NCBI GenBank assembly: GCA_016287565.1
Contig: JAEFAM010000002.1
Coordinates: 7,648-71,647, forward strand
From: Clostridia bacterium
GTDB lineage: Bacteria > Bacillota > Clostridia > UBA1212 > UBA1255
Length of the DNA: 64,000 nt
Reading direction: 5' to 3'
Shown here one piece after another: positions 5,793 to 44,640 of the stretch. The translations under genes were made by a program, and so were the position numbers. Each line of letters starts with the position of its first letter. Within the stretch, counting starts at the first letter, position 1. The notes under the pieces are model-generated. The model ran no database searches. It was not told the origin of the DNA and worked only from the letters and a program-made list of their open reading frames with translations.

Positions 5793-6827
5793 TCAATAAT
5801 AGGGGCTGAAACCGCTGCCTCCCTCGGGAGCGCCGTTTTCGAATACCCTCTTGTTCAGTTCCTGAGCCGCGTTGTAGCCCATCATCTTCTGGCGGTTGTT
5901 CATGGTCGCCGCCTCGACTATCACTGCCAGATTGCGCCCCGGCATTACCGGTATGGTGACGCAGGGCACCTTGATGCCCAGTATCTCCGTGTAGGTGTCC
6001 TCGAGGCCTACGCGCTCGTATTCCTTGCCCTCCACCCATTTTTCAAGCTGGATCACCAGCTGGATGTTCTCCGTCATCTTGACCGCGCCCACGCCGTAGA
6101 GCCGCTTCACGTCGACGAATCCCACTCCCCGGATCTCGATCAGGTGGCGTATCACGTCGGGAGCGCTGCCTACCAGCGTCTTATGGGACACGCGGCGGAT
6201 CTCCACGATATCGTCCGCCACCAGCCTGTGGCCGCGCTTGATCAGCTCCAGCATGGTCTCGCTCTTGCCCACGCCGCTCTTGCCCCGGATCAGCACGCCT
6301 TCTCCGTATACTTCCACGAGGCCCGCGTGAACGGTCTTTCTTGGGGCAAGCTGCACGCAGAGGTATCTGTTTAGCTCGCTGTACAGCGCGGTGGTGGCAA
6401 TATCCGCTCCCAGCACCGGTATGCCGTGTTTTTCGCCCAGCGAAAGCATCTCCGGGAACGGTTCCAGGGACCGGGCAATTATCAGGCAGGGAAATCCCAT
6501 TTCGAACAGCTTAGCCAGCTTCTGCCTGCGCACGTCCTCGTCAAGGCTCTTCAGGTAGAGCATTTCGGAGTTCCCCATGAGCTGTATCCGGTCCCGGGTG
6601 AAATCTTCCGTGTAGCCGGATATCTCCAGCCCGGGCCTGTTGAGGTCGGGGGTAGATATCAGCACCTGAGAAGTCAGTTCTCCGCCGCAAAGGACGGTGA
6701 GCTGCATCTCGCTGATGATCTTGTCCAGGCTGACGCTGTAGGGCGCTTCCGAGAGCGCGCCTCCTTCGCCGCTGCCGTTATTGTCTTCGATATTGACGCT
6801 GCCGTCCATTTCCTTATCGGGGCTCAT
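5793..6827 (-). CDS. hprK: HPr kinase/phosphorylase
   Basis: Walker A GVLIRGKSGVGKSE and the HprK C-terminal signature LVADD...EIRGVG. Start chosen at ATG (MSPDKEM) rather than the longest ORF. The N-terminus is extended relative to the Bacillus enzyme. Confidence 0.8.
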   Translation of the reverse strand: MSPDKEMDGSVNIEDNNGSGEGGALSEAPYSVSLDKIISEMQLTVLCGGELTSQVLISTPDLNRPGLEISGYTEDFTRDRIQLMGNSEMLYLKSLDEDVRRQKLAKLFEMGFPCLIIARSLEPFPEMLSLGEKHGIPVLGADIATTALYSELNRYLCVQLAPRKTVHAGLVEVYGEGVLIRGKSGVGKSETMLELIKRGHRLVADDIVEIRRVSHKTLVGSAPDVIRHLIEIRGVGFVDVKRLYGVGAVKMTENIQLVIQLEKWVEGKEYERVGLEDTYTEILGIKVPCVTIPVMPGRNLAVIVEAATMNNRQKMMGYNAAQELNKRVFENGAPEGGSGFSPYY

Positions 6828-6900
6828 ATGCGTTTCATCCACTCTCCCGCCTCGTCCTTTCCAAGCTTCCATGCGTTGCCGCGCCGCCCGGTCCGGACCC

Positions 6901-12673: not shown

Positions 12674-13507
12674 TCAGTCCGTTTTGAAGTTTTTGTCGCG
12701 GTTCTTAAAATGCTTCACAATCATTTCCACTATCCCGCTTAAGACGGACAACGCAGCCAGCGCGATGATGACTATCATGATCACGCCGCCAGCGGAAGAA
12801 GTGTTGTTCTTGCCCTCTCCCTCCGGAACTTCGAACTTGATGACGTTGCCGTTGTACGTGGGCACCGGCGTGGCGTTCGGATCCCGCGTGACCTCCGGCG
12901 TCCCGGTCGCATCTGCGTCTTCCGTCGCTTCAGGGTCGATTTCGCCCTTCTCTTCCGGGTCGATCGCGCCCGCTTCTTCCGGGTCAATCGCGCCCGTCGC
13001 TTCCGGGTCCATCGCGCCCGTCTCTTCCAGGTCCATCGCACCCGTCGCTTCCGCCAGATCCGTCAATACGGTCTCCGCCTGCCCCGCCGCATCGAGCGCG
13101 GCAACGTCCGCCATCTCCGCCTCAGCGAGCATGGCAACGTCCGCCTTCTCCGCCTGCTCAGCCTCAGAGAGTGGGGCAACGTCCGCCTTCTCCGCCTCAG
13201 CGAGCATGGCAACGTCCGCCTTCTCCGCCTGCTCAGCCTCAGAGAGTGGGGCAACGTCCGCTATCTCCGCCTGCTCTGCCGCAGAGAGTGGGGCAACGTC
13301 CGCTATCTCCGCCTGCGGGATCTCGCCGGCCTCGGCAAATACAGGCGCGTGAGCGGCGGCGAGGCACAGCACGGCAATGACGATCAGCGCGGCAATAAAT
13401 GCCGCTTTCCTGCTGCCGCAATTTGCTGTTTTCCCGAACCAGCGGTGTTTCATAACAGGCACACACCCCCACGGTGGTATTGTACCATCGAAGGCGTTTT
13501 TTGGCAA
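12674..13507 (-). CDS. Secreted/membrane-anchored acidic tandem-repeat protein
   Basis: Signal-like hydrophobic segment (likely start MKHRWFGK at 13453). Repeats ADVAPLSEAEQAEK/ADVAMLAEAE and a C-terminal TM anchor. The repeats are also visible at the DNA level. Confidence 0.55.
   Translation of the reverse strand: MPKNAFDGTIPPWGCVPVMKHRWFGKTANCGSRKAAFIAALIVIAVLCLAAAHAPVFAEAGEIPQAEIADVAPLSAAEQAEIADVAPLSEAEQAEKADVAMLAEAEKADVAPLSEAEQAEKADVAMLAEAEMADVAALDAAGQAETVLTDLAEATGAMDLEETGAMDPEATGAIDPEEAGAIDPEEKGEIDPEATEDADATGTPEVTRDPNATPVPTYNGNVIKFEVPEGEGKNNTSSAGGVIMIVIIALAALSVLSGIVEMIVKHFKNRDKNFKTD
13100..13320. repeat. In-gene tandem DNA repeats (33 plus 42 bp compound unit) that encode the acidic peptide repeats
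   Basis: GCAACGTCCGCCTTCTCCGCCTCAGCGAGCATG alternating with GCAACGTCCGCCTTCTCCGCCTGCTCAGCCTCAGAGAGTGGG. Confidence 0.7.
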
Positions 13508-13539
13508 GGATAAACAGACGAAGAACGGACGGAATTCCT

Positions 13540-13815
13540 CTGTGCAAAGTGATCTTCGCCTGCGGCGAGTGATCTTCGGCCTGACGGCCGAGTGATATTG
13601 CGCGGGGCGCAGTGATATTCGCCATACGGCGAGTGGTGTTGCGCGGCGCGAGCAGCTAAATTCGACTTCGTCGAGCGAAATTGAACCCTGACTGTTTAGC
13701 GGGGCTTTTCAGGGTTCAGCTAAATGCGACTTCGTCGCGCTAAATTCGTGCTGTCACACGAGCTAAATTCCGCATTGCGAGCAGTGAAATTCGACTTCGT
13801 CGAGGAAAATTGATC
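13540..13815. repeat. Array of mini-hairpins separated by the conserved octamer GTGATATT/GCTAAATT (top-strand orientation)
   Basis: About 12 units of roughly 20 nt. Each is an 11-16 nt palindrome (for example CGCCTGCGGCG, TGCGCGGGGCGCA, CGACTTCGTCG) followed by GTGATCTT, GTGATATT, GCTAAATT or GTGAAATT. Confidence 0.8.
13681..13719. repeat. Conserved hairpin class 2 (TTGAACCCTGA-loop-TCAGGGTTCAG) followed by CTAAAT
   Basis: 10-bp stem with a 19-nt loop. The same stem with a different loop occurs at 21208..21245. Confidence 0.7.
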
Positions 13816-13885
13816 TTCGGTCGGAGGGATTGATCTCTTCCTTCGCTCATACCAAAGGCCTTGCTCTGTCTCCGAGAGGCAGATG

Positions 13886-14142
13886 AACGAAAAACGCCCA
13901 CATTTTACCGCTCCTTTCAAATTTCTGGGCGTTTTGAAGAAGGACGCTCTGTCTATTAGCTTTAAACGAGCGGAAAACGCCCACATTTTACCGTTTCTTT
14001 CGAATTTCCGGGCGTTTTGAAGAAGGTGGCGCTGCCTCTGAAGCTTGAAATGAGCGAGAAACGCCCACATTTTACCGTTTCTTTCGAATTTCTGGGCGTT
14101 TTGAAGAAGGTGGCGCTGCCTCTGAGCTTGAAACGAGCGATA
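13886..14142. repeat. Three tandem copies of an 83-bp unit, each with a 9-bp-stem hairpin AAACGCCCA-25 nt-TGGGCGTTT
   Basis: Unit starts at 13892, 13975 and 14058, nearly identical. The track ORF 13720..14190(-) is a translation artefact of this repeat. Confidence 0.8.
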
Positions 14143-14189
14143 ATATAGCTGGACCCTGACGTGCTCGAGCAAAAAGCCGGAAGGGTCCA

Positions 14190-14644
14190 ATTTAGCCGAA
14201 GCAGCAGGCTTCGATTTAGCTGTGAGCGCCAGCGAACAATTTAACTGAAGGCCGCAGGTTCCATTGTCTCTGAAAGCCTGCGGTCTTCAGTTTCACTCGC
14301 GCGCCAGCGCGAATTTAGCTCGGCCGTCAGGCCGAATTTAACTGCCGCAAAGAGGCAATTTAGCTTGACGAAGTCGAATTTAGCTGCTCGCCTCGCAAGC
14401 AATTTCGCTCGCGCGTCAGCGCGAACATCACTCCGCGAAGCGGAATATCACTTGCCCGCAGGGCAAATATCACTCGCGCGCCAGCGCGAATTTAGCTCGG
14501 CCGTCAGGCCGAATATCCCTCGCCGCAGGCGAATATCACTCGGCTCCAGTCTGACGTCAGGCCGAATATCCCTCGCCGCAGGCGAATATCACTCGGCTCC
14601 AGTCTGACGTCAGGCCGAATATCACCGCGGCTCCCACCTGCTCC
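14190..14644. repeat. Array of mini-hairpins with octamers AATTTAGC/AATATCAC (opposite orientation to 13540..13815), ending in 2.5 copies of a 59-bp unit
   Basis: Units such as CTCGCGCGCCAGCGCG-AATTTAGCT, CGGCCGTCAGGCCG-AATATCCCT and CGCCGCAGGCG-AATATCACT. The 59-bp unit contains the palindrome CTGACGTCAG. The array abuts the GH3 stop codon. Confidence 0.8.
14247..14288. repeat. Conserved hairpin class 1 (GAARRCCGCAGGYT-CCATTGTCTCTGAAA-AGCCTGCGGYYTTC)
   Basis: 14-bp stem. The loop is identical to the copy at 26787..26828 and differs by one nucleotide (CCATTGTCACTGAAA) from the copy at 24584..24625. Stem differences between copies are compensatory. Confidence 0.8.
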
Positions 14645-17152: not shown

Positions 17153-17156
17153 TTTA

Positions 17157-19247
17157 TCATCCTTCTTTTTCGATCAGATACTCTGAGAAAGACAGCCTGG
17201 GCGCCGGAACGCGAAGAATGCCGTCCCGTACTATCCCGTCTTCGGCGGGTCCTTCTGTTATCTGCTGATCGTTAAGTCTGTTCATCGAAAGCAGTTCTCC
17301 GCCCTTCAAAATGACGCCCCTGGCGATCCCTTCCCTTATCCCGAAGGCGGAAAGGTCTATCTCCACTTCGTCGTCCTGTTCGGAGCGGTTCAGCACGTTA
17401 AGCACCAGCGCCGAACCGTCCTTGTTTTCGGAAAGCTGCACGCTGACGGGATCCGTGCGCAGGGCGTGGTAGTTTTCGATCTCAATCGTCCTTGCCGCCT
17501 GCGTATTGGCGAAACGGTGCATCATCATTCCCGCGGCGGTAATATAATAGCCTTCCTTGGGCGTCTCCAGCACGGACTGGGAATGGGTATTGGCCAGGTT
17601 GTTGAAATTGATGAAGTCCACAATGTCGCCGTGCCTCTGCCACATCATCATATTGGCCGCGGCGTCCAGGGCGTAGGACCATTTGCTGAAGAGGAAGCAT
17701 TTGTTGTGCCGCATCTCGGAGCGTGGCACCATATTGTACACGTCTGCGCCGTTCAGCGGGAGCCATTCCGTGTTGCAATATTTTAAGTTAGTGCCGTGCT
17801 TTTCGTTGTACGCGCGGAGGATGCCGAGCTTGCGCTCCAGGTCCTTCTCTTCTATGCCCCGGTCGGCAAAAAAGTCGATATATTCTCCCGCTCGTTCCAG
17901 CATCATTTCCAGCGTTTCGTACCCGTGGCAATATGAGATCATTCCGATCTTTATCGTTGGGTCGACCGCCTTCATCGCCTTGGAATACATGACGCAGGTG
18001 TCGGCGTACTCCTCGGCGGAAAACCAGCGGTGTATCTCGTTGTCCATCTCCCAATATTTTACGTTGTATGGCTTTTCCCTGCCGTTGGCCGCGCGCTGCC
18101 TTCCGCCTTCGGTGGTGAGGTCGCCGTTGCAATATTCCACCCAGGCTGCCGCTTCCCTGGCGCCCAGTTCCTTGTCCGCGAACTGTTTGAGGTCGCGTCC
18201 GTGCCTGGCGGCGGGTATGTTTGGATCGTCGGGATCACGGTCGAAATATTCCTGAGGCACGTAGTCGTAGAACCGCTTGAAGGGGTGGAAAAGGTTGACG
18301 CAGATCATGGATTCGCCGCCTACCGCCTCTGCGTAGGAAACCAGCTCGTCGGTGCCTATGTCGTTGTACCTGAAGCCGCCCCAGAAATCCGAATACATGG
18401 GCGTCCTGTTTTTGCCCACGCCGTCGCGCCAGTTGTAGAAGGAGGCGAAGCAGCCTCCCGGCCAGCGTATCACTTTCGGGGCAACGTACCTGCCCGCTTC
18501 CACCGCGCTCTTTTTAAAGCCGCCTATGGCGTCATCCGGCGTCAACGAAAAGTCGTCGCACAGTATTTCGCTCCCTTCCGGCGTCAACAGCGCGAAAGTG
18601 TACCGTCCTTCTTTCGGCACGGCGAGCGAAGCTTTCACTTCGGCGAAATCTCCTTTAACGTCCAGCGGGGCAACGCACACCGGATCCTTTACGGTATTCT
18701 CCCTGTAGAGCGCCGCGAAAAAGCCTCTGCCGGAACTGCCGGGCCGGACAACGTCGATCCTTCCTCTGAAGCTGTAATTGACGCCCGGGAAGCAATATTT
18801 TCCGTCCTGGGCCAGGCCTCCGTCGCCGCCGCAGTTGTTGACAACCCTCATTGCGTGGGTGCCGTTGACGCCTCCCTCTACGATGCCGATGGTGACGTCG
18901 GCGCAGGGCGACTTTTCGATTACGAAGGTGGAATCGTCCCGTATCTCCTGGTATCCGGCAGTGCCCGGGAACGCGAACCAGGCGTTGTGCTCGTAGGAGG
19001 AATGGTACCAGTCGAACACGCGCCAGTCGGTCTCGCACCGGGACTGAAGGTCGTTCTCGTCCTCCAGCAGGTCGAACCAGATCTTGTTGATCATGCGGTA
19101 CGGATAGAAGGGCTCGAAGCTGCGGTTGAAGAACAATTCCGCGGCCATACCTTCCACCTGAAGGCCGTATCCCAGCTCTATAAAGTTGGAAGCCAGCCTG
19201 GGGCTTATGGCTGTGGAATGGTATTTTTGAGTAGCTTTAAGTTTCAT
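17157..19247 (-). CDS. Clan GH-A glycoside hydrolase, GH51-like (putative alpha-L-arabinofuranosidase)
   Basis: IRWPGGCFASFYNWRDGVG resembles the GH51 RYPGGNFVSGYNWEDG block. The NE acid/base region is KYWEMDNEIH. Start placed at ATG 19247 (MKLKAT) with GAGG Shine-Dalgarno; the longest ORF starts with TTG at 19274. Confidence 0.6.
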   Translation of the reverse strand: MKLKATQKYHSTAISPRLASNFIELGYGLQVEGMAAELFFNRSFEPFYPYRMINKIWFDLLEDENDLQSRCETDWRVFDWYHSSYEHNAWFAFPGTAGYQEIRDDSTFVIEKSPCADVTIGIVEGGVNGTHAMRVVNNCGGDGGLAQDGKYCFPGVNYSFRGRIDVVRPGSSGRGFFAALYRENTVKDPVCVAPLDVKGDFAEVKASLAVPKEGRYTFALLTPEGSEILCDDFSLTPDDAIGGFKKSAVEAGRYVAPKVIRWPGGCFASFYNWRDGVGKNRTPMYSDFWGGFRYNDIGTDELVSYAEAVGGESMICVNLFHPFKRFYDYVPQEYFDRDPDDPNIPAARHGRDLKQFADKELGAREAAAWVEYCNGDLTTEGGRQRAANGREKPYNVKYWEMDNEIHRWFSAEEYADTCVMYSKAMKAVDPTIKIGMISYCHGYETLEMMLERAGEYIDFFADRGIEEKDLERKLGILRAYNEKHGTNLKYCNTEWLPLNGADVYNMVPRSEMRHNKCFLFSKWSYALDAAANMMMWQRHGDIVDFINFNNLANTHSQSVLETPKEGYYITAAGMMMHRFANTQAARTIEIENYHALRTDPVSVQLSENKDGSALVLNVLNRSEQDDEVEIDLSAFGIREGIARGVILKGGELLSMNRLNDQQITEGPAEDGIVRDGILRVPAPRLSFSEYLIEKEG

Positions 19248-19319
19248 ATGCAGCCTCGCCGAATCCGTCGTCAATAAAAGTCGTCAAGATATGTCGTCAA
19301 GTAAGTTCGGTATGGCCGG

Positions 19320-21122
19320 TCATTTGTAAAGCGGCCCGAAGTTCTTGCAGGCCCGGAAATCGGCGCCTTCCTTGTCCATGCCGAAAGCGTTCCAGGCGGC
19401 GGGACGGAATATGTCTTTGTCGGGGACGTTGTGCATGCACACGGGTATTCTCAGTATGGAGCAGAGCGTGATCAGATCTGCGCCGATGTGGCCGTAGGAG
19501 ATGGCTCCGTGGTTGGCGCCCCAGTTGTTCATTACACTGTACGCGTCTTCGAAGGGGCTGCCGGACCTGCCGTCGCAGCGTGGCGTGAACCAGGTGCAGG
19601 GCCAGGTAGGATTGGTGCGTTCCATCAATATATCCGTGACTTCGTCGGGCAGTTTTACGGTCCAGCCTTCCGCGATCTGGAGCACGGGGCCCAGGCCTTT
19701 GACCAGGTTAAGGCGGATCATCGTGGCAGGCATTTCGGCCCTGGTGACGAAGTGGCTGGAGAAGCCGCCTCCGCGGAAATTGTCGAAGCCGGCCTCGCAC
19801 CAGACGGTGGCGGCGGTCATCTTTTCGATGTCTTCGTCGTTGACCTCCCACCAGCGTTTCATCAGGTGATTGCCCTCGGCGTCGGTGGCCTCTCCGCAGG
19901 CGTCGAGACAGGCGGCGCCGGAGTTGAGCAGGTGGATTATGCCACCGTTCTCCCTGGCCTTGCCCTGGAATTCGTAATTCGCCACCCGTTTTACGGCGTC
20001 GGGAGACCAGTAGGTGCGCACGTCGGCGAATATCTGGGCGCGGCCGGTGAGCAGCTTCATAAAGAGCATCCCCATGCCGTTCAGGATGTCGTTTTCGGTG
20101 GCAAGCACGTAGGGCTCCCTGGCGCCTTCAAAGTCGAAGGAGGAGTTCAGCAGCGCCTCGGGATAGTCGCAGTTGGGCCAATGGTCTGTCCACTGGCGCT
20201 GTCCCTGGAAGCCGGCGGCGATGGCGTTGTGGCCGGAAGCTTCTTCTTTGAACTGCGGAGGCAGCCGGTCGCTTCCGCCCATGAGGTCGCGGATGATCAG
20301 ATACATTTTTACGGTGAATTCCCACTGTTTTTTCTTCTGTTCGGGAGAGAAACGCACGAAATCCGGGTTGTCGTCCCGGCCTTCCTTACAATGTTCGAAG
20401 GTCCAGGCCAGCGCCCGCTCGTAATCCTCTTTGTTGTATATCCCCTCTTCCATGCGCCTGAGTATCTCAACTTCGTCAACGGATTCCACCCGCATGCCGA
20501 AGTAGTCCTCCATAAACGCCTGGTCCATTATCGACCCGCCGATGCCCATCGTCACCGAGCCGATCTGGAGATACGATTTGCCCCGCATGGACGCCGCGGC
20601 AACGGCTGCCCTGCCGAACCGCAAAAGCTTCGCGGCAACGTCGTCGGGTATCCTGTCCACGTCTCCCACGTCCTGCACTTCGTGCCCGTATATCCCGAAG
20701 GCAGGCAGCCCTTTCTGTGCGTGTGTGGCAAGCACGGATGCCAGATACACCGCTCCGGGCCGCTCCGTGCCGTTGAAGCCCCAGACCGCCTTTATAGTAT
20801 GCGGGTCCATATCCATGGTCTCTGATCCGTAGCACCAGCAGGGCGTCACGGTCAACGTGATGTCCACTCCTGCTTTTCTGAATTTCTCCGCACACGCCGC
20901 GGATTCCGGCACCCGGCCAATGGTCGTGTCCGCCACGATGACCTTCACGGGCTCCCCGTTCGAATAGAAAAGGTTCTCCTCGAACAGCTTCTTCGCCGCC
21001 AGGGCCATGGCCATGGTCTGGTCCTCCAGGCTCTCTCTCAGCCTCATTGGCCCCCGTCTGCCGTCAATAGTCGGTCTGATGCCTATCACCGGTTCTCCGC
21101 CGATAAGTCGCTGCTTTTTCAT
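19320..21122 (-). CDS. fucI: L-fucose isomerase (also acts on D-arabinose)
   Basis: N-terminus [26 protein letters not shown] matches E. coli FucI ([31 protein letters not shown]). About 600 aa, as for FucI. Confidence 0.85.
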
Positions 21123-21205
21123 ATGACACCTCCGGAATGTATTTCGGTTTTTCGTTGGGTCAATTGTACCAAAAAAAGTGGTGGTTGTCCATCGGGAAAA
21201 GCGAA

Positions 21206-21325
21206 TGTTGAACCCTGATATGTTGTCAGAAAATTCAGGGTTCAGCTAAATTCGTCCTGACGAACGAGCGGAATTCGTCCTGGCGGGCGGGCGAAATTGC
21301 TCGCGTGGCGAGCGGCTCTTGTTTA
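21206..21325. repeat. Class-2 hairpin plus a short mini-hairpin/octamer array in the fucI upstream region
   Basis: TTGAACCCTGA-20 nt-TCAGGGTTCAG, then CTAAATT-CGTCCTGACGAACGA-GCGGAATT-CGTCCTGGCGGGCGGGCG-AAATTG-CTCGCGTGGCGAGCGG. Confidence 0.7.
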
Positions 21326-21517
21326 AATCGTTGTATTTCTTTTTGGAACGTCCGCTTCTGACGAATGGGATGAAATCAACAGGTTTGTAAGAAACGCAAG
21401 GCCAAGATCCAGGAATCAAACGCTATTGTCAGCGCTCGATTGACCCTGAACTTGCTTTTCACACCCGCTTGCCGATAAAATATTGACAACGAATGAACGC
21501 GCAGAAAGGGCTCGGAT

Positions 21518-21724
21518 ATGATCAGGAAGATAGACGTGCCCGCAGAGGCCATGGTGGAATTAAAAAGACGCCGAGATCATAATAACCGGATCGATAATCT
21601 ACAGGATCAAAACGTGGATACCACCGTCATTCCGGAAGTATCCGATTCTGTTAAAAACCAGTTGAGAAAAGATTTTAAAAAGGACATGCAAGGATATGCG
21701 ATTTTTTGTCGTCACATTATTTGA
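21518..21724 (+). CDS. Small hypothetical protein (68 aa) in the low-GC leader of the sigma-factor operon
   Basis: ORF only. Weak RBS, no motif. Could be non-coding. Confidence 0.25.
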   Translation: MIRKIDVPAEAMVELKRRRDHNNRIDNLQDQNVDTTVIPEVSDSVKNQLRKDFKKDMQGYAIFCRHII

Positions 21725-21760
21725 AAGGGATCAGGAGACGAAATTATCCAGGGAGAAACA

Positions 21761-22345
21761 ATGACAGGCCTGACAAGTGATATTTACAACAACATAACTG
21801 ACGAAGAGATAATTGCCATGCTCGAGGGACGGGACGAAATGGCAATGGGATTACTGGAATCCAGATTCCGTAATCTTATACGAAGCACTTCTGTCCGGAT
21901 CCTCGGGAATGAGCAGGACGCGGAGGAGTGCGTCAATGATGTGCTGCTGAAGATCTGGAACAGTATTCCGCCGAACAAACCATCGAATTTAAAAGCATAC
22001 GTGGCTGTCGCGGCCAAAAACAACGCGATCGATCGTTATAAAGCGCAGCGGCGCAAGGGCCGGATCCCTCCGGAAAAACTGGAACCGCTGGAAACTGCAG
22101 ACAACATCGGAGTGTTAGATATTGACCGGGATGATAAAGAAACTGTTGCCGCGCTGATAGCCGATTATTTAAACGGAGTCAGCTCTGAAAAAAGAAAGTG
22201 CTTCATTGCCAAATTCTATTTCGGGGCAAAAGATTCCGAGATAGCAAGGAAAGCAGGAGTGCCTGTGGGGACTGTTTCATCGACATTGAGCAGGATGCGT
22301 AAGGAACTGATTAAAAAACTGAAAACGGAAGGAATAAGGTTATGA
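21761..22345 (+). CDS. ECF-subfamily RNA polymerase sigma-70 factor
   Basis: Region 2 (ECVNDVLLKIWNSI) and region 4 HTH (SEIARKAGVPVGTVSSTLSRMRKEL). GGGAGAAACA-ATG ribosome-binding site. Confidence 0.8.
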   Translation: MTGLTSDIYNNITDEEIIAMLEGRDEMAMGLLESRFRNLIRSTSVRILGNEQDAEECVNDVLLKIWNSIPPNKPSNLKAYVAVAAKNNAIDRYKAQRRKGRIPPEKLEPLETADNIGVLDIDRDDKETVAALIADYLNGVSSEKRKCFIAKFYFGAKDSEIARKAGVPVGTVSSTLSRMRKELIKKLKTEGIRL

Positions 22346-24375
22346 AAAACAAAAAGCTGAAAGAATATATGAAATATTTGCCTCAGGAGATGCTGTCTGA
22401 GGCCGAGGAATTTGTTCCGTCCGTCCCAGAAGTGAGTTCTTCATCCGCCGGCAGGGCGAAGAAGTTTTTTGGCTCGACCGCGTTCAGATTTGCTGTCGAA
22501 GCTTTGGTGGTCGCGGCTTCGCTGGCTGCAGGGATAATTATTGCTATCCGGTTAAGTAAACCCGACAGTCAGGATAAAGGAAACGAAACGACGATATCAG
22601 AGGGGACAGAAGCGCCGACGCAGGCCGGGCAGGTTACTGCTGCTCCGACGGAGATTCCGACGATGCTTCCGGCAACACCGGCTGAAACTACTGCCGCCAC
22701 GTCAACGACGACAGTGCCTCCTACCGCGACGCCGACGAAATTGCCTTCTTCGGAGACGCCCGTCGAGGTGGTACCCACTGCGACGTCAACTGTAACAACA
22801 CAGACGACTGTTCCGCCGACAGCGACACCGACAGCCGTACCTCCGACAGCGACATCAACCGCCGCACCGACTGCTTTGCCTCCTACAACTACGCCGACGA
22901 AAGCGCCTTATACCGCTGCTCCGACCGCAGTTCCGCCGACCGCGACCCCGACTGCCGCACCTCCGACGACGGCGCCTGCTACAGTACATCCGGACTGGTT
23001 TTCAGGACCTGAGGCAACGGTAAGGCCAGACCATATTGCCCCGGAAGGAGCAGCGGAATACATTATATTGCCGACGAAAAACACCAGATCGGAGTTGTTC
23101 CCGGATGTTCTTCCGGAATCAGTGAAGCTTGACGGTGACAAAGCATATTTCAACGTCCGCAGCAGGATCGAAACGGTCCTGATAGACGAAACCGGCATGA
23201 TGTACTTTTTAAAAGGCGAAATGTATATCGACCAGATATACCTTTGCGACGTAACGCGGAACGGAAACAGCATAATACTCACAGCGAAAAGCATACATTT
23301 CAGGCTGAAATGCACTTCAAATGAAGATTACAATGCGCTGGTGTTTACGGTAAAATACCAGGAAGACTCAGTGGGCAGTAACGTTCAATGTGTTAAAGAG
23401 TTACTTGCCGGAAAGCTATATTACGATTTCTCCGCAGGAAAATGGAATTCGCTGCTGCTCCCGGGACCGAACGTTGTAAACGAATTGACTCTGAACCTCG
23501 GCGGTACCGAGGGGTATCCTGCCGTAATCGACACCTCGAACGCATCAGGCGGTACATCCTCAATAACCAGCTTCCGTTATGAATTTGACGGTTCCGGAAA
23601 ACTCAGCAGTTATGCTAAAATTTTCGGAGCCTGCAGATATGAGCAATATTTTGAGAACGGGATACTTGTACGCGAATATACGGTGAACAGTTCAGACAGT
23701 TCGACTGAAAAAATATACAATCTGGAAGGGATCGACCTGTATACACGGATCATTAACGGAGACACCGAGACCGTCCGGGAACGGTACAAAGACCGTGCGG
23801 ATCTGGTTTATGAGACAGTCAAGATAAAGAAGAAGGAAAGTGATACCAGATCGACGTATACCGAAAATGTATATTGTTATAAAAACGAGAGCCGTACGGA
23901 AACGTTTCTGTACAAGAATACTGTGACAACGTATTATTCTAACGAATGGCAGACGGTTACAACTAAAACGTATCGTCCTGACGGCCAGGAGCTTAGCAGT
24001 ATTACGGATTTTGGCAACGGGTCGTGTTCCGAGATATTGTATGTGTATCGTGATTCCGGTGTGATCGCAGAAAAAACGACCATAATTACGGAAAACGGCC
24101 TGCGCAATCGGTATACTCTGCTAAGATATAACGAAAAAGGAAAAGCGATCTATTATTTTGATGAGCTTCGATATTCCGACGACGAATTGCACTACTCCGA
24201 AGATCACTATTATGATTCCGGTCGGGCAAGGATCGAAAGAAGATATGCGACCAACGGCGGAATGGATCCGAATGATCCTCCGTACAACTATTACCGTTAT
24301 TATGACGAGGCGGGCAATATAATCAGATCCGGCGTCGTTGCCTACGTCAATGGCGAGTGGATCGAGGATCCGTGA
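22342..24375 (+). CDS. Single-pass membrane protein co-transcribed with the ECF sigma (putative anti-sigma/sensor) with a Pro/Thr-rich linker and an extracytoplasmic YD-repeat (RHS-like) domain
   Basis: ATGA overlap with the sigma gene. One TM helix (FAVEALVVAASLAAGIIIAI). A PT-rich linker of about 170 aa (VPPTATPT repeats). C-terminal YD-type repeats (KTYRPDGQELS, HYYDSGRARIERRY, YRYYDEAGNIIRSG). The second half has lower GC. Confidence 0.65.
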   Translation: MKNKKLKEYMKYLPQEMLSEAEEFVPSVPEVSSSSAGRAKKFFGSTAFRFAVEALVVAASLAAGIIIAIRLSKPDSQDKGNETTISEGTEAPTQAGQVTAAPTEIPTMLPATPAETTAATSTTTVPPTATPTKLPSSETPVEVVPTATSTVTTQTTVPPTATPTAVPPTATSTAAPTALPPTTTPTKAPYTAAPTAVPPTATPTAAPPTTAPATVHPDWFSGPEATVRPDHIAPEGAAEYIILPTKNTRSELFPDVLPESVKLDGDKAYFNVRSRIETVLIDETGMMYFLKGEMYIDQIYLCDVTRNGNSIILTAKSIHFRLKCTSNEDYNALVFTVKYQEDSVGSNVQCVKELLAGKLYYDFSAGKWNSLLLPGPNVVNELTLNLGGTEGYPAVIDTSNASGGTSSITSFRYEFDGSGKLSSYAKIFGACRYEQYFENGILVREYTVNSSDSSTEKIYNLEGIDLYTRIINGDTETVRERYKDRADLVYETVKIKKKESDTRSTYTENVYCYKNESRTETFLYKNTVTTYYSNEWQTVTTKTYRPDGQELSSITDFGNGSCSEILYVYRDSGVIAEKTTIITENGLRNRYTLLRYNEKGKAIYYFDELRYSDDELHYSEDHYYDSGRARIERRYATNGGMDPNDPPYNYYRYYDEAGNIIRSGVVAYVNGEWIEDP

Positions 24376-24469
24376 ATTTGATCTTCTTTCGAGAGGGAAA
24401 CAGCAAATGTTAGTTAAAGGAACAAAAGCGCCGGATCTCACACTTCCGGACCAGAACAAAGTCATTGGT

Positions 24470-24655
24470 ATGCGCGAAGGAAATATTTAGCCGCTCGCCA
24501 CGCGGGCAACATCACTCCGCGAAGCGGAATTTCGCTCGCGCCAAAGCGCGAATTTAGCTGGATCCGCAGGCTTCAATTTAGCTGAAAACCGCAGGCTCCA
24601 TTGTCACTGAAAGCCTGCGGTTTTCAATTTAGCTCGGCATAGAGGGCTATCACTT
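24470..24655. repeat. Mini-hairpin/octamer array plus a class-1 hairpin between convergent genes
   Basis: CCGCTCGCCACGCGGGC-AACATCACT-CCGCGAAGCGG-AATTTCGCT-CGCGCCAAAGCGCG-AATTTAGCT-GGATCCGCAGGCTTC-AATTTAGCT-[class-1 hairpin 24584..24625]-AATTTAGCT. Confidence 0.8.
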
Positions 24656-26329
24656 TTCCCTCTTGTCCTTCTCCCTGATCTCCACGCGGCGGATCTTGCC
24701 GCTGATGGTCTTGGGCAGCTCGTCGACGAATTCCACGACACGGGGGTACTTGTAAGGAGCGGTGGACTTTTTGACGTGGTTCTGCAGCTCCTTCTTAAGC
24801 TCGTCGGAAGCCGTGTAGCCCCTTGCCAGCACCACGGTGGCCTTGACCACCTGGCCCCTGAGTTCGTCGGGGACGCCGGTGATGGCGCATTCCAGCACCG
24901 CGGGGTGGGTCATCAGGGCGGATTCCACTTCGAAGGGGCCGATGCGGTAGCCGGAGCTCTTGATGACGTCGTCCTTGCGGCCAACGTACCAGAAATAGCC
25001 TTCCTCGTCGCGGTAGGCCAGGTCGCAGGTGTGATAATAGCCGTCGTGCCAGACTTCCTCGGTGAGTTCCTTGTCCTTGTAATAGCCCTTGAACATGCCG
25101 ACGGGGCGGCCTTTGGAGGTGTTGATCACGATCTCACCCACTTCGCCGGGATAGCAGGAACGCATATCGTTGTCGACGATATCCACGTCGTAGCAGGGGG
25201 AGGGTTTGCCCATGGAGCCGGGTTTTTTCTTCATCCAGGGGAATGTGCAAACGAGGGCAACGACTTCGGTCTGCCCGTAGCATTCCCGCATCTCGATGCC
25301 GGTGGCCGCCTTGATCTGGTTGAACACTTCCGGATTCAGCGCCTCTCCCGCCACGGTCAATTCCCGGAGCGACGACAGGTCGTAGCTCTTCATATCTTCC
25401 TTCATCATGAAGCGGTACATCGTTGGCGGCGAGCAGAAAGTGGTGAGTTTGTAGTCCTGCATCTTCCGGAGCAGTTTGTTGGGATCGAACTTGTCCATAT
25501 CGTACACGAAAATGGCGGTCTCCCCCAGCCATTGACCGTAAAGCTTGCCCCAGACGGCCTTTGCCCAACCCGTCTCCGCCACCGTCATATGAAGGCCGCC
25601 CTCTTTAACGCTGTGCCAGTAACCGGCGGTGATTATGTGGCCCAGAGGGTAGGCGAAATCGTGTATGACCATCTTGGGATAGCCGGAAGTGCCGGAAGTA
25701 AAATACAGGAGCATGGTGTCGTCGTTGTGCACCGCTTTCTCCCCCTCCGGCCTGGGGAAAACGTCGGAAGCGCTTTCCACGCCCTTGTCGAAATCCAGCC
25801 AGTCGCCTCCCGGGAACTCCCCGTGGCCGCCGGCGGACAATTTAAGCTTCAGCGTGGGCGAGGTCAATTGCGCCTCTTCCACCTGCTTGTAAAAGTCGTG
25901 GTCCGTGGTGGCGATGATCGCCTTCACGTCCGCCCTGTTGAACCTGTAATCCAGGTCCTTCGCCGTCAACAGGTGCGTTGCGGGCACGGCAACGGCTCCG
26001 ATCCTGTGAAGCCCCATCAGCGCGTACCAGAACTGGTAATGGCGCTTCAGCACCAGCACCACGCTGTCGCCCTTCCCGATGCTCAGGCTCGACAGATAAT
26101 TGGCCGCGCGCATCGACAGCTTCGACATCTCGCCAAACGTGAAAGTCCGCTCCGCGCCATGATCGTCGCACCAGACCATTGCCCTGCCGTCCGGATCCTT
26201 CTCCGCCAGCGCGTCCAGCACGTCGTATGCAAAATTAAAATCGTCTGGGACGTTGATCCGCAGATTCGCCTTCATATCCTCGTAAGACGTAAAATCCGCT
26301 CTGTTAACGTACTTCTCAAAAAATGCCAT
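24650..26329 (-). CDS. AMP-forming acyl-CoA synthetase (ACSM/medium-chain fatty-acid-CoA ligase-like)
   Basis: AMP-binding motif YFTSGTSGYPK, YGQTE, and the C-terminal KTISGKIRR lysine motif. Start at ATG 26329 with AGGTGG Shine-Dalgarno. Confidence 0.8.
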   Translation of the reverse strand: MAFFEKYVNRADFTSYEDMKANLRINVPDDFNFAYDVLDALAEKDPDGRAMVWCDDHGAERTFTFGEMSKLSMRAANYLSSLSIGKGDSVVLVLKRHYQFWYALMGLHRIGAVAVPATHLLTAKDLDYRFNRADVKAIIATTDHDFYKQVEEAQLTSPTLKLKLSAGGHGEFPGGDWLDFDKGVESASDVFPRPEGEKAVHNDDTMLLYFTSGTSGYPKMVIHDFAYPLGHIITAGYWHSVKEGGLHMTVAETGWAKAVWGKLYGQWLGETAIFVYDMDKFDPNKLLRKMQDYKLTTFCSPPTMYRFMMKEDMKSYDLSSLRELTVAGEALNPEVFNQIKAATGIEMRECYGQTEVVALVCTFPWMKKKPGSMGKPSPCYDVDIVDNDMRSCYPGEVGEIVINTSKGRPVGMFKGYYKDKELTEEVWHDGYYHTCDLAYRDEEGYFWYVGRKDDVIKSSGYRIGPFEVESALMTHPAVLECAITGVPDELRGQVVKATVVLARGYTASDELKKELQNHVKKSTAPYKYPRVVEFVDELPKTISGKIRRVEIREKDKREK

Positions 26330-26739
26330 CAGAACCACCTTCCATTCCTCGGAGTAAATATGAATCGGACGGAAGTTCCGGGGACAAAAAAACTCGTCTC
26401 AGAAACGAGACGAGGTCAATGACTTCGTTATACCACTCGGAATTCTGTCGGATTCGGTACGCCCCGGCCCTTTTCCTGCTGAGCCTCGCGCACTTAAATC
26501 TTCCGCCTGTCACGGGACGCCCCGGAGCCGCTTACCACCGTCTCCGGCTTCAGCCGCCCGGCTCAGGAGTGATCTGCTTCCGCCCTTCCTCACCGCATTG
26601 CACCAGACTGCGGCTCTCTATAGAGGACAATGGCGGCGCCCGTCTCCGTCAACGCCGTTACGCGAATTATACTCCTCGTTTCCCGGCGGCGCAAGTGGTT
26701 TTTTGCTCGGGACAATACGCGGCGCGCGGAAGGACATGG

Positions 26740-26856
26740 TGCGCATGGCGCGCAGTGATATTGCTCGCGTTGTGAGCAGCGAAATTGAAAACCGCAGGCT
26801 CCATTGTCTCTGAAAGCCTGCGGTTTTCAATTTCACTCGCGCGTCAGCGCGAACGC
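26740..26856. repeat. Class-1 hairpin flanked by inverted octamers, immediately downstream of trkH
   Basis: CAGTGATATTG...GCGAAATT-[GAAAACCGCAGGCT-CCATTGTCTCTGAAA-AGCCTGCGGTTTTC]-AATTTCACT-CGCGCGTCAGCGCG. On the minus strand the hairpin is followed by UUUUC, so it may also act as the trkAH terminator. Confidence 0.75.
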
Positions 26857-38749: not shown

Positions 38750-39275
38750 AAATTTAGGGGCGGGGCGCAGTGATATTCTGCTTCGCAGAGTGATATTGCG
38801 CGGGGCGCAGTGATATTGTGCTTCGCACAGCTAAATTACTCGCTTGCGCTCGCAGCTAAATTGCGTGCAGGGCACGCAGCTAAATCGAAGCCGTCCGGCT
38901 TCGGCTAAATTGACCTTCGGTCAGCTAAGCTCGGTTGCGGCGAGTGATATTGCGCGAAGCGCAGTGATATTCTGCTTCGCAGAGTGATATTGCGCGGGGC
39001 GCAGTGATATTCTGCTTCGCAGAGTGATATTGCGCGGGGCACAGTGATATTGTGCTTCGCACAGCTAAATTACTCGCTTGCGCTCGCAGCTAAATTGCGT
39101 GCAGGGCAAATTAAGCTGTTCGCGCCAGCGAACGATATCACTCGGCGAAGCCGAACATCACTCGCACGCAAGTGCGAATATCACTGCGAGTGTTAACGAG
39201 CAATATCACTTGGCGTAGCCGAACATCACTCGCACGCCGGTGCGAATATCACTGCTCATACCAGCGAGCAACAGG
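38750..39275. repeat. Large mini-hairpin/octamer array that switches orientation near 39115 (GTGATATT/GCTAAATT units, then GATATCACT/GAACATCACT units)
   Basis: Units of about 20 nt: TGCGCGGGGCGCA-GTGATATT, CTGCTTCGCAG-A-GTGATATT, GTGCTTCGCAC-AGCTAAATT and so on. A 150-bp block (38760-38910) is duplicated at 38950-39110. The right arm reads CGGCGAAGCCG-AACATCACT, CGCACGCAAGTGCG-AATATCACT. Confidence 0.8.
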
Positions 39276-39288
39276 AGGCGCATGATAA

Positions 39289-39948
39289 TTGGAGCCGATC
39301 TGCTTTTCGAATAGAGATCTTGAGAGCATAGAACGCTCCGCGGCGCCTGGTGATTCGGGCGCCGAAGGGCTGCTTATTGCCGTTTTGGATAACGTGAAGC
39401 AGAAGATCCGCTCCGGCTCCCCTTTCGAGGAGGAGCCCCATATATTGCTGCGGGAGACCGGCGGGAAAGTCTCGCTGTATACAAATTATTTCCTCCGGAA
39501 TCAGGCTGCAGGCGGAGGCTTTGCGGACCTGGTCTTTTCTGATGAGTTTCTTGCCGGACTGGCGGAAGAGATATGCGACCGTTCGTTGACGGAACGGGAG
39601 CCGGAGCAGGGCGCAGGAGCGGGAACTGCAGAAGGAGAGCTGCCGGACGAAGATATTGCCGCATACGCGGGAAGGATTGCCGCAAAAGTGGCGGAAAAAG
39701 AGCGTGAGCAGGAAGCCGCGGAGAGCGCCGGAGGTTTGAGCCGGACGGGCCGCAATATAATGCTCAGGATGATACATTTTTGCGCCGGGAGCGGCGGAAG
39801 AGGCGATAAAAAAGGAAAGCTCCTTTCGAAGCTTTCCGTTAACGTTATTGACATGGCCGTGTCCGGATGTTCCGGCGCCCGGTCGAAGGAAGATCTGTCA
39901 GTGCTGGACGCCGCGGGTCATTTTCTCGGCATCGTCACCCGTTCATAA
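39289..39948 (+). CDS. Hypothetical protein (Ala/Glu/Gly-rich)
   Basis: ORF only. The only start in frame is TTG. No motif. Low-complexity middle region. Confidence 0.3.
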   Translation: MEPICFSNRDLESIERSAAPGDSGAEGLLIAVLDNVKQKIRSGSPFEEEPHILLRETGGKVSLYTNYFLRNQAAGGGFADLVFSDEFLAGLAEEICDRSLTEREPEQGAGAGTAEGELPDEDIAAYAGRIAAKVAEKEREQEAAESAGGLSRTGRNIMLRMIHFCAGSGGRGDKKGKLLSKLSVNVIDMAVSGCSGARSKEDLSVLDAAGHFLGIVTRS

Positions 39949-44169: not shown

Positions 44170-44640
44170 CCTGTTGTTAGTGGGAAACGGGAAATGGCAA
44201 GTGGCAAATGGCAAGTGGGAAATGGAAAATGGCAAATGGCAAGTGGGAAATGGAAAATTATATTTTCCTCATTTTCAATCTGCACTTCTCGCTTTGCGTT
44301 TTTCAATTTCCGATTTGCAATTTCCAATTTGCAATTCTCAACTGGCAAGTGGGAAATGGCAAGTGGCAAATGGCAAATGGGAAATGATAATATCCTTTTC
44401 TCCTTTTCGATTTTCAACTATTCACTTGCAATTTGCAATTTCCAATTTGCAATTTTCTATCTTCCCCTTTTAATTTGCAATTTGCAATTTCCAATTTGCA
44501 ATTTTCAATTTGCAATTTCCAATTGTCACTTCGCAACTTTTAATTTGCAATTTGCCATTTGCAATTTGCAATTTTCAATTTGCAATTCTCCATTTGCCAT
44601 TTGCCATTTGCCATTTGCAATTTGCAATTTGCAACTAATC
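44170..44640. repeat. 470-bp intergenic block of heptanucleotide tandem repeats G[CG]AA[AG]TG alternating with complementary-orientation blocks CAATTT[GC]/CATTTGC
   Basis: Block 44175-44265 is (GCAAGTG/GCAAATG/GGAAATG/GAAAATG)n. Block 44300-44335 is (CAATTTC/CAATTTG)n. Block 44336-44385 is again (GSAARTG)n. Block 44420-44640 is (CAATTTG/CCATTTG)n. The track ORFs here (44025..44417, 44158..44679, 44174..44473, 44559..44771) are repeat translations. Confidence 0.85.

Follow-up and report, generated by a model that had tools for sequence, protein, structure and literature searches.

Five intergenic gaps in a 64,000-nucleotide stretch of a Clostridia bacterium genome (contig JAEFAM010000002.1 of assembly GCA_016287565.1, positions 7,648 to 71,647; hereafter the window) carry short arrays of hairpins joined by a nearly fixed A/T-rich heptamer, one of which runs over the stop codon of the gene beside it. 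What are these arrays, how do they come and go, and what might they do where they lie? An earlier note, made from the letters of the window, had compared them with the repetitive extragenic palindromes (REP) and bacterial interspersed mosaic elements (BIME) of enterobacteria. Here we show that the arrays belong to the Gut-1 RNA family (RF01706), that the motif held by Rfam is one arm of a larger two-armed element, and that the arrays gain and lose whole modules between otherwise identical strains.

The window arrays are Gut-1

An Rfam search of the window returned Gut-1 RNA, with three matches above the gathering score of 50 bits (Table 1), and by the Rfam criterion the arrays are Gut-1. Ten further matches with E < 0.1 fall on the gaps that we call A, B and D, and none on C or E. 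Array B, which stays below the gathering score, is tied to A and C through shared blocks of 48-53 nt.

Gut-1 was defined as three hairpins with GUGAAAU between them, is typed by Rfam as Gene; sRNA, and has so far come only from gut-associated uncultured bacteria and gut metagenomes, where it lies 3' of a stop codon or a terminator (Weinberg et al. 2010, PMC2864571). Beyond that paper, our literature search found no other that discusses Gut-1. The window arrays share with the published motif the GUGAAAU/GUGAUAU linker and the short covarying hairpins closed by U-A. They differ from it in two respects: the Rfam model comprises the three hairpins of one arm, whereas the element described here is a two-armed composite with a long-range helix; and this genome carries arrays of up to at least 16 modules, a second linker class (GCTAAAT) and several loci that are polymorphic between strains. 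The family name, the convergent pairing of arms and the limited repertoire of stems had escaped the earlier reading.

Anatomy of the module

Each module consists of a 7-nt A/T-rich linker (consensus G-Y-K-A-W-A-T) followed by a hairpin of the form T-[4-6 bp GC-rich stem]-[3-4 nt loop]-stem-A, described throughout on the strand on which the linker reads GTGATAT or GCTAAAT. These are the main linkers; GTGAAAT, GCGAAAT and GTTAAAT are rarer. Examples of the hairpins are tcgccTGCggcga, tccgcTTCgcgga and tcggccTGACggccga. A dynamic-programming parse of the window found at least 41 perfect linker-and-hairpin units with 29 distinct hairpin sequences, a unit being counted as perfect when its spacer folds back without error over at least 4 terminal pairs; only 0.7% of shuffled spacers fold back in this way. 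The 9-mer AATATCACT, allowed at most one mismatch, occurs 42 times against 7.3 expected, a number that none of 100 shuffles reached, and outside the arrays it matches 11 times, at scattered single sites and about as often as expected by chance.

The palindromes of the units measure 9-18 nt and the linkers are spaced at 16 to more than 50 bp. A few modules hold long hairpins of 37-44 nt instead, which are likewise enclosed by T...A and by linkers. Tandem Repeats Finder reports periods of 20-25 within the arrays, and also of 40, 53 and 68, which are blocks of two or three modules. The predicted RNA fold has a z-score of -3.7 for array B and of -8.3 for arm A2. The variable stems and fixed linker of the earlier note describe the architecture well, but the stems are not free to vary, being drawn from a limited, conserved and recurring repertoire.

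Read in the sense of the Rfam model, the loops are of the T..C type (TTC, TTGC, TAC, TTAC, TGC). On the opposite strand about 55% of them are C-GNA-G triloops or C-GNRA-G tetraloops, the type that gives very stable DNA mini-hairpins. Since the arms of a pair are inverted, each strand carries one arm of each loop kind.

A heptad that resembles the linker also occurs in the window without hairpins. Between two minus-strand genes, the gap at 44181-44634 is wholly filled by contiguous 7-bp repeats, (GGCAAAT/GGGAAAT/GGAAAAT)n blocks followed by (ATTTGCA/ATTTCCA)n blocks, twice over and convergent, with the general form GNNAAAT. Other loci, 1.6 Mb in total, contained no heptad run of this type; in one gut contig of Weinberg's, Gut-1 is followed downstream by similar AUUUUCA heptads.

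A two-armed composite with covarying helices

At 58 genome loci the arrangement of the modules is stereotyped, a composite of about 175 nt made of a left arm of four modules, the centre GGCGAATATA and an inverted right arm of three modules. The composite starts with a long hairpin, often a bidirectional terminator, after which come CA-GTTATAT, P1 (tcgcc..ggcga), GTGATAT, P2 (tgcttcgca), GTGATAT, P3 (tcggc..gccga), GTGATAT, P4 and GTT plus 4-6 nt; the centre is followed by ATATCAC, P5 (tgaaacc..ggtttca), ATATCAC, P6, ATATCAC, P7 and a last ATATCAC. Its usual place is downstream of one gene's 3' end and ahead of the next gene's promoter. Both arms match the Rfam model, the left on one strand and the right on the opposite strand, which identifies the published motif as a single arm; in Weinberg's Stockholm alignment (2007-era Sanger gut contigs) the centre and the right arm are visible as unaligned flank.

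The centre is complementary to the first linker and the 5' half of P1, and both sides of this helix, P0, covary. For centres ending in ATATA, ATAGA, ATAAA, GGCAAATATA or ATTTA, 52 of 67 cases show a 10-nt stretch upstream that complements the centre exactly. When 41 composites were aligned, RNAalifold recovered the long-range helix together with the hairpins, and 28 of the 45 pairs showed compensatory changes. Across this alignment 96.3% of the cells are paired, compared to 33-48% when the partners are slid, and compensatory cells number 289 against 80 in shuffles, none of 500 shuffles reaching the observed count. P0 itself is 100% paired there, a figure that reflects the choice of sequences for an exact complement, the unbiased one being 52/67. 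The modules are under constraint to remain hairpins.

Pairing between the linkers of the left and right arms was rejected as a strict helix, for the association is weak (9 T/A versus 1 G/A) and 27 of 84 cells are mismatched. Wobble pairs did not assign the hairpins to a strand: in the sense of the linker 20 A.C and 9 G.T mismatches were counted, the counts are roughly balanced on the aligned composites, and the units are not independent.

One locus of another genome (L107, 190-580; L numbers are our labels for sequences outside the window) holds two full composites 70 nt apart, each behind its own terminator-like hairpin. All linkers of the one are GCTAAAT/ATTTAGC and all linkers of the other GTTATAT/ATATCAC, so linker class belongs to the element and not to the genome, and a single trans factor per genome that fixes the linker class was rejected. 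Among 51 composites, a sigma-70-like promoter begins within a few bases of the last linker in 10; terminator-like sites are located upstream of 26 and downstream of 22, and 15 have none on either side.

Distribution in other genomes

A scan with a three-linker pattern, in one genome per GTDB species, gave at least 119 stretches from at least about 105 genomes, and true hairpin modules were present in at least 108 of the stretches. The hosts are metagenome-assembled genomes (MAGs) from gut and rumen, assigned to Acutalibacteraceae, Oscillospiraceae, Ruminococcus, Christensenellaceae, Faecousia, Butyrivibrio crossotus and 'Clostridia/Eubacteriales'. Apparent hosts among Methanobacteriota, Arcicella, Gracilibacteria, Prevotella and one Verrucomicrobiota MAG were rejected as simple repeats or stretches without hairpins. 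More true arrays came from metagenome contigs, which were scanned with the GCTAAAT linker. Matches to the bare linker pattern that are unrelated simple repeats made up about 9% of the genome scan, 79% of the metagenome scan and 41 of the 42 matches in 2.9 million viral contigs; only one of the 42 was a genuine hairpin array, and carriage by phages was therefore rejected.

A neighbouring case was noted in an Akkermansia sp. MAG (L009, 6500-6950), where a tandem repeat of about 190 nt is built from similar linker and hairpin pieces (GTTATAT, GCGATAT and ATATAAC with GC palindromes). The bin is assigned to Verrucomicrobiota, and the repeat could be a parallel family, a horizontal transfer or contamination of the bin.

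The arrays avoid coding sequence throughout the family. Of the 205 arrays in other genomes, just 5% overlap a called open reading frame (ORF), in DNA that is 80% coding, which is far from the equal frequency in coding sequence that the earlier note had named as a sign of low-complexity sequence. Neighbouring arms are convergent in 58 of 67 pairs, as are both pairs in the window. As for gene ends, an association that the earlier note had asked to see, the gene on the left (upstream) side of a composite is co-directional in 33 cases versus 13, and the gene on the 5' side of a single arm in 43 versus 19. Some arrays take up whole gaps: 5+9 modules fill a convergent gap in L166, and in L185 an array spans the entire gap between two co-directional genes, from the TAA to 20 nt before the ATG. 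Filling the gap from stop codon to ribosome-binding site, the L185 array is bound to be co-transcribed if its two genes form an operon.

No single kind of neighbour accounts for these positions. The 129 flanking proteins match 145 Pfam families, the commonest being PALP with 6 proteins, which led us to reject a tie to one gene family or to a transposase; no mobile-element domain is among the 25 Pfam families most often matched. A conserved site beside tRNA genes was likewise rejected, since of 141 elements just 13 have a tRNA gene within 200 nt (the element lying just 3' of it), and the tRNAs are of many kinds.

Gain and loss of modules between strains, species and loci

Two other assemblies carry gap D, 662 nt in length, without a single base difference, which excludes assembly noise as the source of the arrays. 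At locus A, strain L292 lacks one 84-bp central unit and strain L293 carries a 129-nt in-register tandem duplication of exactly five modules in arm A1, while the rest of the 1.3 kb is 100% identical among the strains compared. Within the window, blocks are common to different loci: A and C share 62 nt at 93.5% identity, B and C 48 nt at 97.9%, A and D 31 nt at 100%, and B shares a further block of 53 nt with A, the inter-locus blocks overall being 89-100% identical. Tandem blocks are also found within arms, a 53-bp block of two units being repeated 2.3 times at 100% identity in A2 and a 40-bp block of two units three times at 95% in D1. Taken together, the strain differences, tandem copies and inter-locus blocks show that the arrays expand and contract in register with the linker on very short time scales, and that blocks move or are converted between loci.

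The orthologous gaps of a close relative from another species, in a comparison of the kind that the earlier note had proposed, proved to be empty. This relative, L002, whose AMP-binding protein is 93% identical to that of the window at 82-87% DNA identity, keeps the Rho-TrkA-TrkH-T-box-AMP-binding synteny and has no modules in the TrkH/T-box gap, after the AMP-binding gene or after the GH3 gene. In 39 kb from four relatives there was no Gut-1 match. Alignment of the filled gap C with the empty gap of L002 revealed neither a clean insertion boundary nor a target-site duplication, the spacer having diverged.

L002 also differs from the window in gene order. There (6678-6853) the GH3 gene follows the AMP-binding gene directly; in the window about 7.5 kb lie between the two, bounded by B and A2. 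The intervening stretch (17153-24470) encodes fucose isomerase, an arabinofuranosidase-like protein and a sigma/anti-sigma-like pair whose codon usage is atypical (GC3 0.52). Possibly the arrays mark the junctions of rearrangements.

Loci of the window and their neighbours

ORFs of the window were self-trained calls, checked with Pfam and public gene calls, and the closest named homologues of the encoded proteins are from Clostridia. The arrays are confined to five intergenic gaps, at 13.5-14.6 kb (A), 21.2 kb (E), 24.5 kb (B), 26.8 kb (C) and 38.8-39.3 kb (D). None lies inside an ORF, the stop codon at array B being the sole coding contact, and about 20 further gaps of at least 40 nt are free of arrays. 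By strict count the arrays total 1.64 kb, or 2.6% of the window, and with the centre of locus A about 1.95 kb, in line with the 2 kb or so that the earlier note had estimated. Its count of five loci and their intergenic position were borne out as well; its statement that all of them abut stop or start codons fails for locus E, which lies in a divergent gap upstream of the L-fucose isomerase gene and adjoins neither. Four of the five gaps have ordinary housekeeping neighbours.

Table 1. Coordinates of the arrays and of the Gut-1 matches in the 64,000-nt window
Feature	Position	Strand	Description
Arm A1	13549-13815	+	at least 7 perfect units; inverted relative to A2
Centre of locus A	13888-14140		84-bp tandem repeat, 3.0 copies, 88% matches
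Arm A2	14136-14626	-	16 perfect units plus imperfect ones; same sense as GH3 gene
Locus E	21208-21313	+	small; long hairpin (TGAACCCTGA...TCAGGGTTCA) and 3 units
Array B	24470-24655	-	3 perfect and about 3 degenerate units; convergent gap; single arm
Array C	26740-26856	-	mini composite
Arm D1	38768-39096	+	at least 11 perfect units; run of GTGATAT-type linkers, then GCTAAAT-type
Arm D2	39130-39277	-	about 6 units, 3 perfect; inverted relative to D1
Gut-1 match	14397-14475	-	66.1 bits
Gut-1 match	38922-38995	+	54.2 bits
Gut-1 match	38768-38841	+	51.5 bits
Gut-1 match, sub-threshold	39002-39075	+	48.0 bits
Gut-1 match, sub-threshold	24480-24560	-	45.8 bits, E 8e-6 (array B)
Gut-1 match in arm A2, weaker	14528-14627
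Gut-1 match in arm A2, weaker	14234-14344
Gut-1 match in arm A1	13610-13686
Gut-1 match in arm A1	13737-13815

Locus A occupies the gap 13508-14644, which reads on the minus strand as GH3 stop, arm A2, 84-bp repeat, arm A1 and a promoter-like site. Arm A2 begins about 20 nt past the GH3 stop (14645); each 84-bp copy in the centre is a long hairpin (AAAACGCCCA...TGGGCGTTTT) flanked by an A-run and a T-run; and beyond A1 the promoter-like TTGCCA-17-TACAAT (13507-13479) precedes the next gene. The protein encoded at 12674-13430 on the minus strand has no family match and contains coding tandem repeats of 24, 42 and 75 nt; strains that are otherwise identical differ here by one 75-nt unit, the protein being 259 aa long in some and 234 aa in another.

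In array C, the stop codon of the TrkH gene is followed by 4 nt, one sense unit, the long hairpin that is also present in B, two inverted units and the promoter of a T-box leader. Loci A and C thus show the order of stop codon, sense arm, inverted arm and promoter, which is the layout preferred by composites elsewhere. The T-box leader (26403-26661, minus strand) scores 66.5 bits (E 3e-12), below the Rfam gathering score of 93, and precedes the acyl-CoA synthetase gene (24650-26329, minus strand), whose best NCBIfam match is the branched-chain acyl-CoA synthetase MbcS (476 bits, below cutoff). A T-box on an acyl-CoA ligase gene is unusual; the candidate specifier codons are GCA and GAU, and leader and enzyme gene are also paired in L002, L003, L006 and L007.

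Array B lies at the other end of this AMP-binding (acyl-CoA synthetase) gene and includes a 44-nt long hairpin (TGAAAACCGCAGGCT...AGCCTGCGGTTTTCA). Its first heptamer, GTGATAG (24653-24647, minus strand), includes the TGA stop codon (24652-24650), and the overlap that the earlier note had seen is real. On the plus strand, a 27-codon ORF (MLVKGTKAPDLTLPDQNKV..., 24407-24490) that resembles the N-terminus of a Bcp/thiol peroxidase ends where the array begins, as if a gene were truncated at B, the sole support being a PDB match to 2cx3 (E 1.6).

The convergent arms of locus D lie in a divergent gap, flanked by the 5' end of a Wzz-like gene and by that of a 219-aa ORF (39289-39948, plus strand), and arm D2 terminates at the ribosome-binding site of the latter. 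A further repeat of the window, a 17-nt sequence (GCGCAGCGTCATCATTA) in three copies at 1057-1107 between a 5'-3' exonuclease gene and an NYN/OST-HTH gene, is not of the Gut-1 type.

Comparison with known repeat families

The behaviour of the arrays is closest to that of REP/BIME elements, with copy-number variation like that of the mycobacterial interspersed repetitive units (MIRU). As in REP/BIME, the arrays are extragenic, are enriched at the 3' ends of genes and inside operons, cluster palindromic units with conserved linkers, vary in copy number and differ in presence between relatives. REP/BIME elements stabilise upstream mRNA and affect translation when near a stop codon. The architecture differs. 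REP stems measure about 12-15 bp, whereas Gut-1 stems are 4-7 bp and conservation lies in the linker instead of the stem; a REP carries a conserved 5' GTAG ahead of an imperfect palindrome of about 20-40 nt, whereas the conserved flank of Gut-1 is G-Y-K-A-W-A-T and a GTAG head is absent; BIME units alternate in orientation, whereas Gut-1 units are direct within an arm with one flip at the centre; and the hosts are Bacillota rather than enterobacteria and pseudomonads. Strict REP or BIME membership was rejected for want of the GTAG head and of alternating orientation. The earlier note's view of REP/BIME-like behaviour with another architecture is thus upheld by the family-wide intergenic position, the empty orthologous gaps and the strain differences in whole units.

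REPINs, whose cognate Y1 transposases are called RAYT, resemble Gut-1 in having two inverted repeat copies, many intergenic copies and long-term persistence with compensatory evolution. REPIN arms pair into one long hairpin, whereas Gut-1 arms do not, given the mismatched linker cells described above. Among the features of miniature inverted-repeat transposable elements (MITEs), inverted arms are present and no target-site duplication could be defined between gap C and L002.

MIRUs are variable-number tandem repeats (VNTRs) whose units lie in operon gaps, touch stop or start codons and vary in number between strains, to which the gap-filling array of L185 and the five-unit duplication of L293 may be compared. 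Their units are 46-100 bp long, nearly identical and often carry small ORFs; they are not linker and hairpin modules. Intrinsic terminators share with the arrays GC-rich hairpins just past stop codons, and long hairpins such as that of array B look like bidirectional terminators; the small Gut-1 modules differ in having no T-tract. Membership among CRISPR arrays was rejected, as identical repeats of 21-48 nt are lacking, the spacers are palindromic and scans of the window found no cas domains. So was membership among type III toxin-antitoxin systems, whose units would not differ and whose ToxN/AbiQ-type neighbour was not found.

What the arrays may do

The explanation that we favour, and which in our judgement has about an even chance of being right, is that the arrays are REP/BIME-like spacers that are structured as RNA and expand by slippage. 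Arms of 16 or more modules would have lengthened as blocks of several modules were duplicated in tandem and in register, whether by slippage or by unequal exchange among the repeated linkers, and blocks would additionally have been copied from locus to locus. The arrays would be transcribed as 3'-untranslated, intercistronic or leader RNA, in which rows of stable hairpins would block 3'-to-5' exonucleases and dampen read-through, thereby insulating adjacent transcription units. They would persist since they are harmless outside coding sequence. For two copies, the gap-filling array of L185 and the stop-codon overlap at B leave little alternative to transcription.

Several observations weigh against this explanation. 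Transcription, and with it the effect on RNA ends, is inferred from position. Intrinsic termination by the small modules was tried and rejected, since consensus scans found no T-tract in them; the terminator-like calls in regions A, B/C and D are not above shuffle expectation, and none of them is a small module. The orientation bias is only about 70%, and loci D and E, which lie in divergent gaps, could only be 5' leaders or untranscribed. The polarity is off for a simple 3'-untranslated model, as it is the strand complementary to the Rfam sense that bears the stable GNA/GNRA loops, and the arm beside the upstream gene therefore has them on the template strand. Compensatory changes in DNA palindromes can come from template-switch correction with no selection on RNA. 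P1 and P0 are mutually exclusive and both are kept. Finally, the composite is conserved as a whole in different families of Clostridia, a hint that some specific factor recognises it, and the structured-spacer model supplies no such factor. The odd polarity, the exclusivity of P0 and P1 and the divergent gaps of D and E keep three alternatives alive, namely mobile DNA, a structured RNA gene and an array for a duplex-binding protein.

The alternative that fares best, although we consider it probably wrong, is that Gut-1 is non-autonomous mobile DNA of the MITE or REPIN kind, selfish and with only incidental effects on RNA. Its ends would be the inverted 9-bp sites and hairpins, probably recognised as single-stranded DNA by a transposase or a domesticated HUH nuclease encoded elsewhere in the genome. 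Such an origin would account for the unrelated gene contexts, for the blocks common to different window loci, for the convergent arms and for the GNA/GNRA type of about 55% of the loops on one strand, and equally for presence that varies between species and for several copies per genome, as in L035, where two near-identical copies lie 2.7 kb apart behind different terminators. On the other hand, Pfam, NCBIfam and PADLOC scans of the window ORFs found no transposase, integrase or RAYT, as the earlier note had anticipated from reading the window, and no such domain, including the Y1 domain PF01797 of RAYT, was found for the 129 flanking genes elsewhere among the 25 Pfam families that they match most often. 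Neither a target-site duplication nor a clean empty-site boundary could be defined, all polymorphisms seen are tandem and none is insertional, two copies in one genome (L017 and L072) are very divergent, which argues against recent bursts, and the module is essentially absent from the viral contigs.

That Gut-1 is a free-standing small RNA gene, as its Rfam type implies, with arrays that are duplicated genes, seems unlikely to us. The strong covariation, the long-range helix and the maintenance of both exclusive helices are what such a gene would show; its seven-hairpin architecture is kept across MAGs of Oscillospirales and Christensenellales, and one subgroup has its own terminator-like hairpin after it. 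Promoters and terminators are inconsistent, however, as the counts for the 51 composites show, and the left edge adjoins an upstream terminator or stop codon. Moreover, the number of modules can be as low as 3 or exceed 16 and is not constant among identical strains, an arm can stand by itself (array B), and every composite contains both module orientations, so no single transcript has the Rfam structure throughout.

Still less credence is given to the arrays as duplex DNA for a heptad-binding protein of the nucleoid-associated, gyrase-like or partition/repressor type, in which the linkers would be the sites and the palindromes would be spacers, or cruciform-prone DNA that sets the local topology between transcription units. 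No part of the element is better conserved than the linker, and its copies face both ways, four plus four, like the sites of multi-site operators or transposon ends; E. coli BIMEs bind gyrase and IHF; a sigma-70-like promoter lies at the last linker in the 10 composites mentioned above; and the window also has hairpin-free GNNAAAT arrays in convergent blocks. Against this, the linkers are too variably spaced to be in helical phase, covariation that preserves hairpins has no role in such a scheme, the two adjacent composites of L107 differ in linker class, which argues against a single cognate protein, and no candidate protein was found.

It is very improbable that the arrays are low complexity, chance, MAG mis-assembly or a CRISPR-like or type III antitoxin (ToxI-like) array, for although the source MAG comes from short reads, perfect tandem copies could be collapses or expansions of the assembly and many bare-linker matches are indeed simple repeats, identical arrays recur in independent assemblies and in 2007-era Sanger gut contigs, the 9-mer and hairpin statistics exclude chance, the fixed part is of 7-9 nt with palindromes as spacers that recur within and between loci and no cas domains were found, and the units are non-identical with no ToxN-like neighbour and no match of that kind in PADLOC, Pfam or NCBIfam.

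Implications

Gut-1 has been an orphan small RNA in Rfam since 2010, known from the human gut only and without an organism, a context or a function. Our results place the motif in MAG lineages of the human and ruminant gut, show the Rfam model to represent just one arm of a larger element that has two, and reveal that this element acts as a dispersed, expandable extragenic repeat and not as a single gene. The two-armed form, the host range and the long polymorphic arrays are absent from the published description that we found. REP-like families are, to our knowledge, well studied in Proteobacteria and poorly described in Clostridia.

A more speculative possibility, and one that we would not expect to prove correct, is that gut Clostridia have an undescribed recognition system with the Gut-1 composite as its cis element, read by a dedicated host factor. 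Such a factor would read the linker and the C-GNA/GNRA-G hairpin on single-stranded nucleic acid, and candidates, as tentative as the system itself, are an HUH/RAYT-like nuclease, another recombinase or an RNA-binding protein. It would fix the inverted arms and the P0/P1 alternatives and would drive both spread and array growth. If this is true, Gut-1 would rank as a Firmicute equivalent of REPIN-RAYT, or as a structured RNA switch of a new kind, and not as a set of passive spacers.

For the gut Clostridia that carry them, the arrays are strain-level VNTR markers, and in gut MAGs they are likely sites of breakage, both in short-read assembly and in genome rearrangement. The conservation of the linker rather than the stem is an unusual design, and it offers a handle for finding the factor that reads Gut-1.

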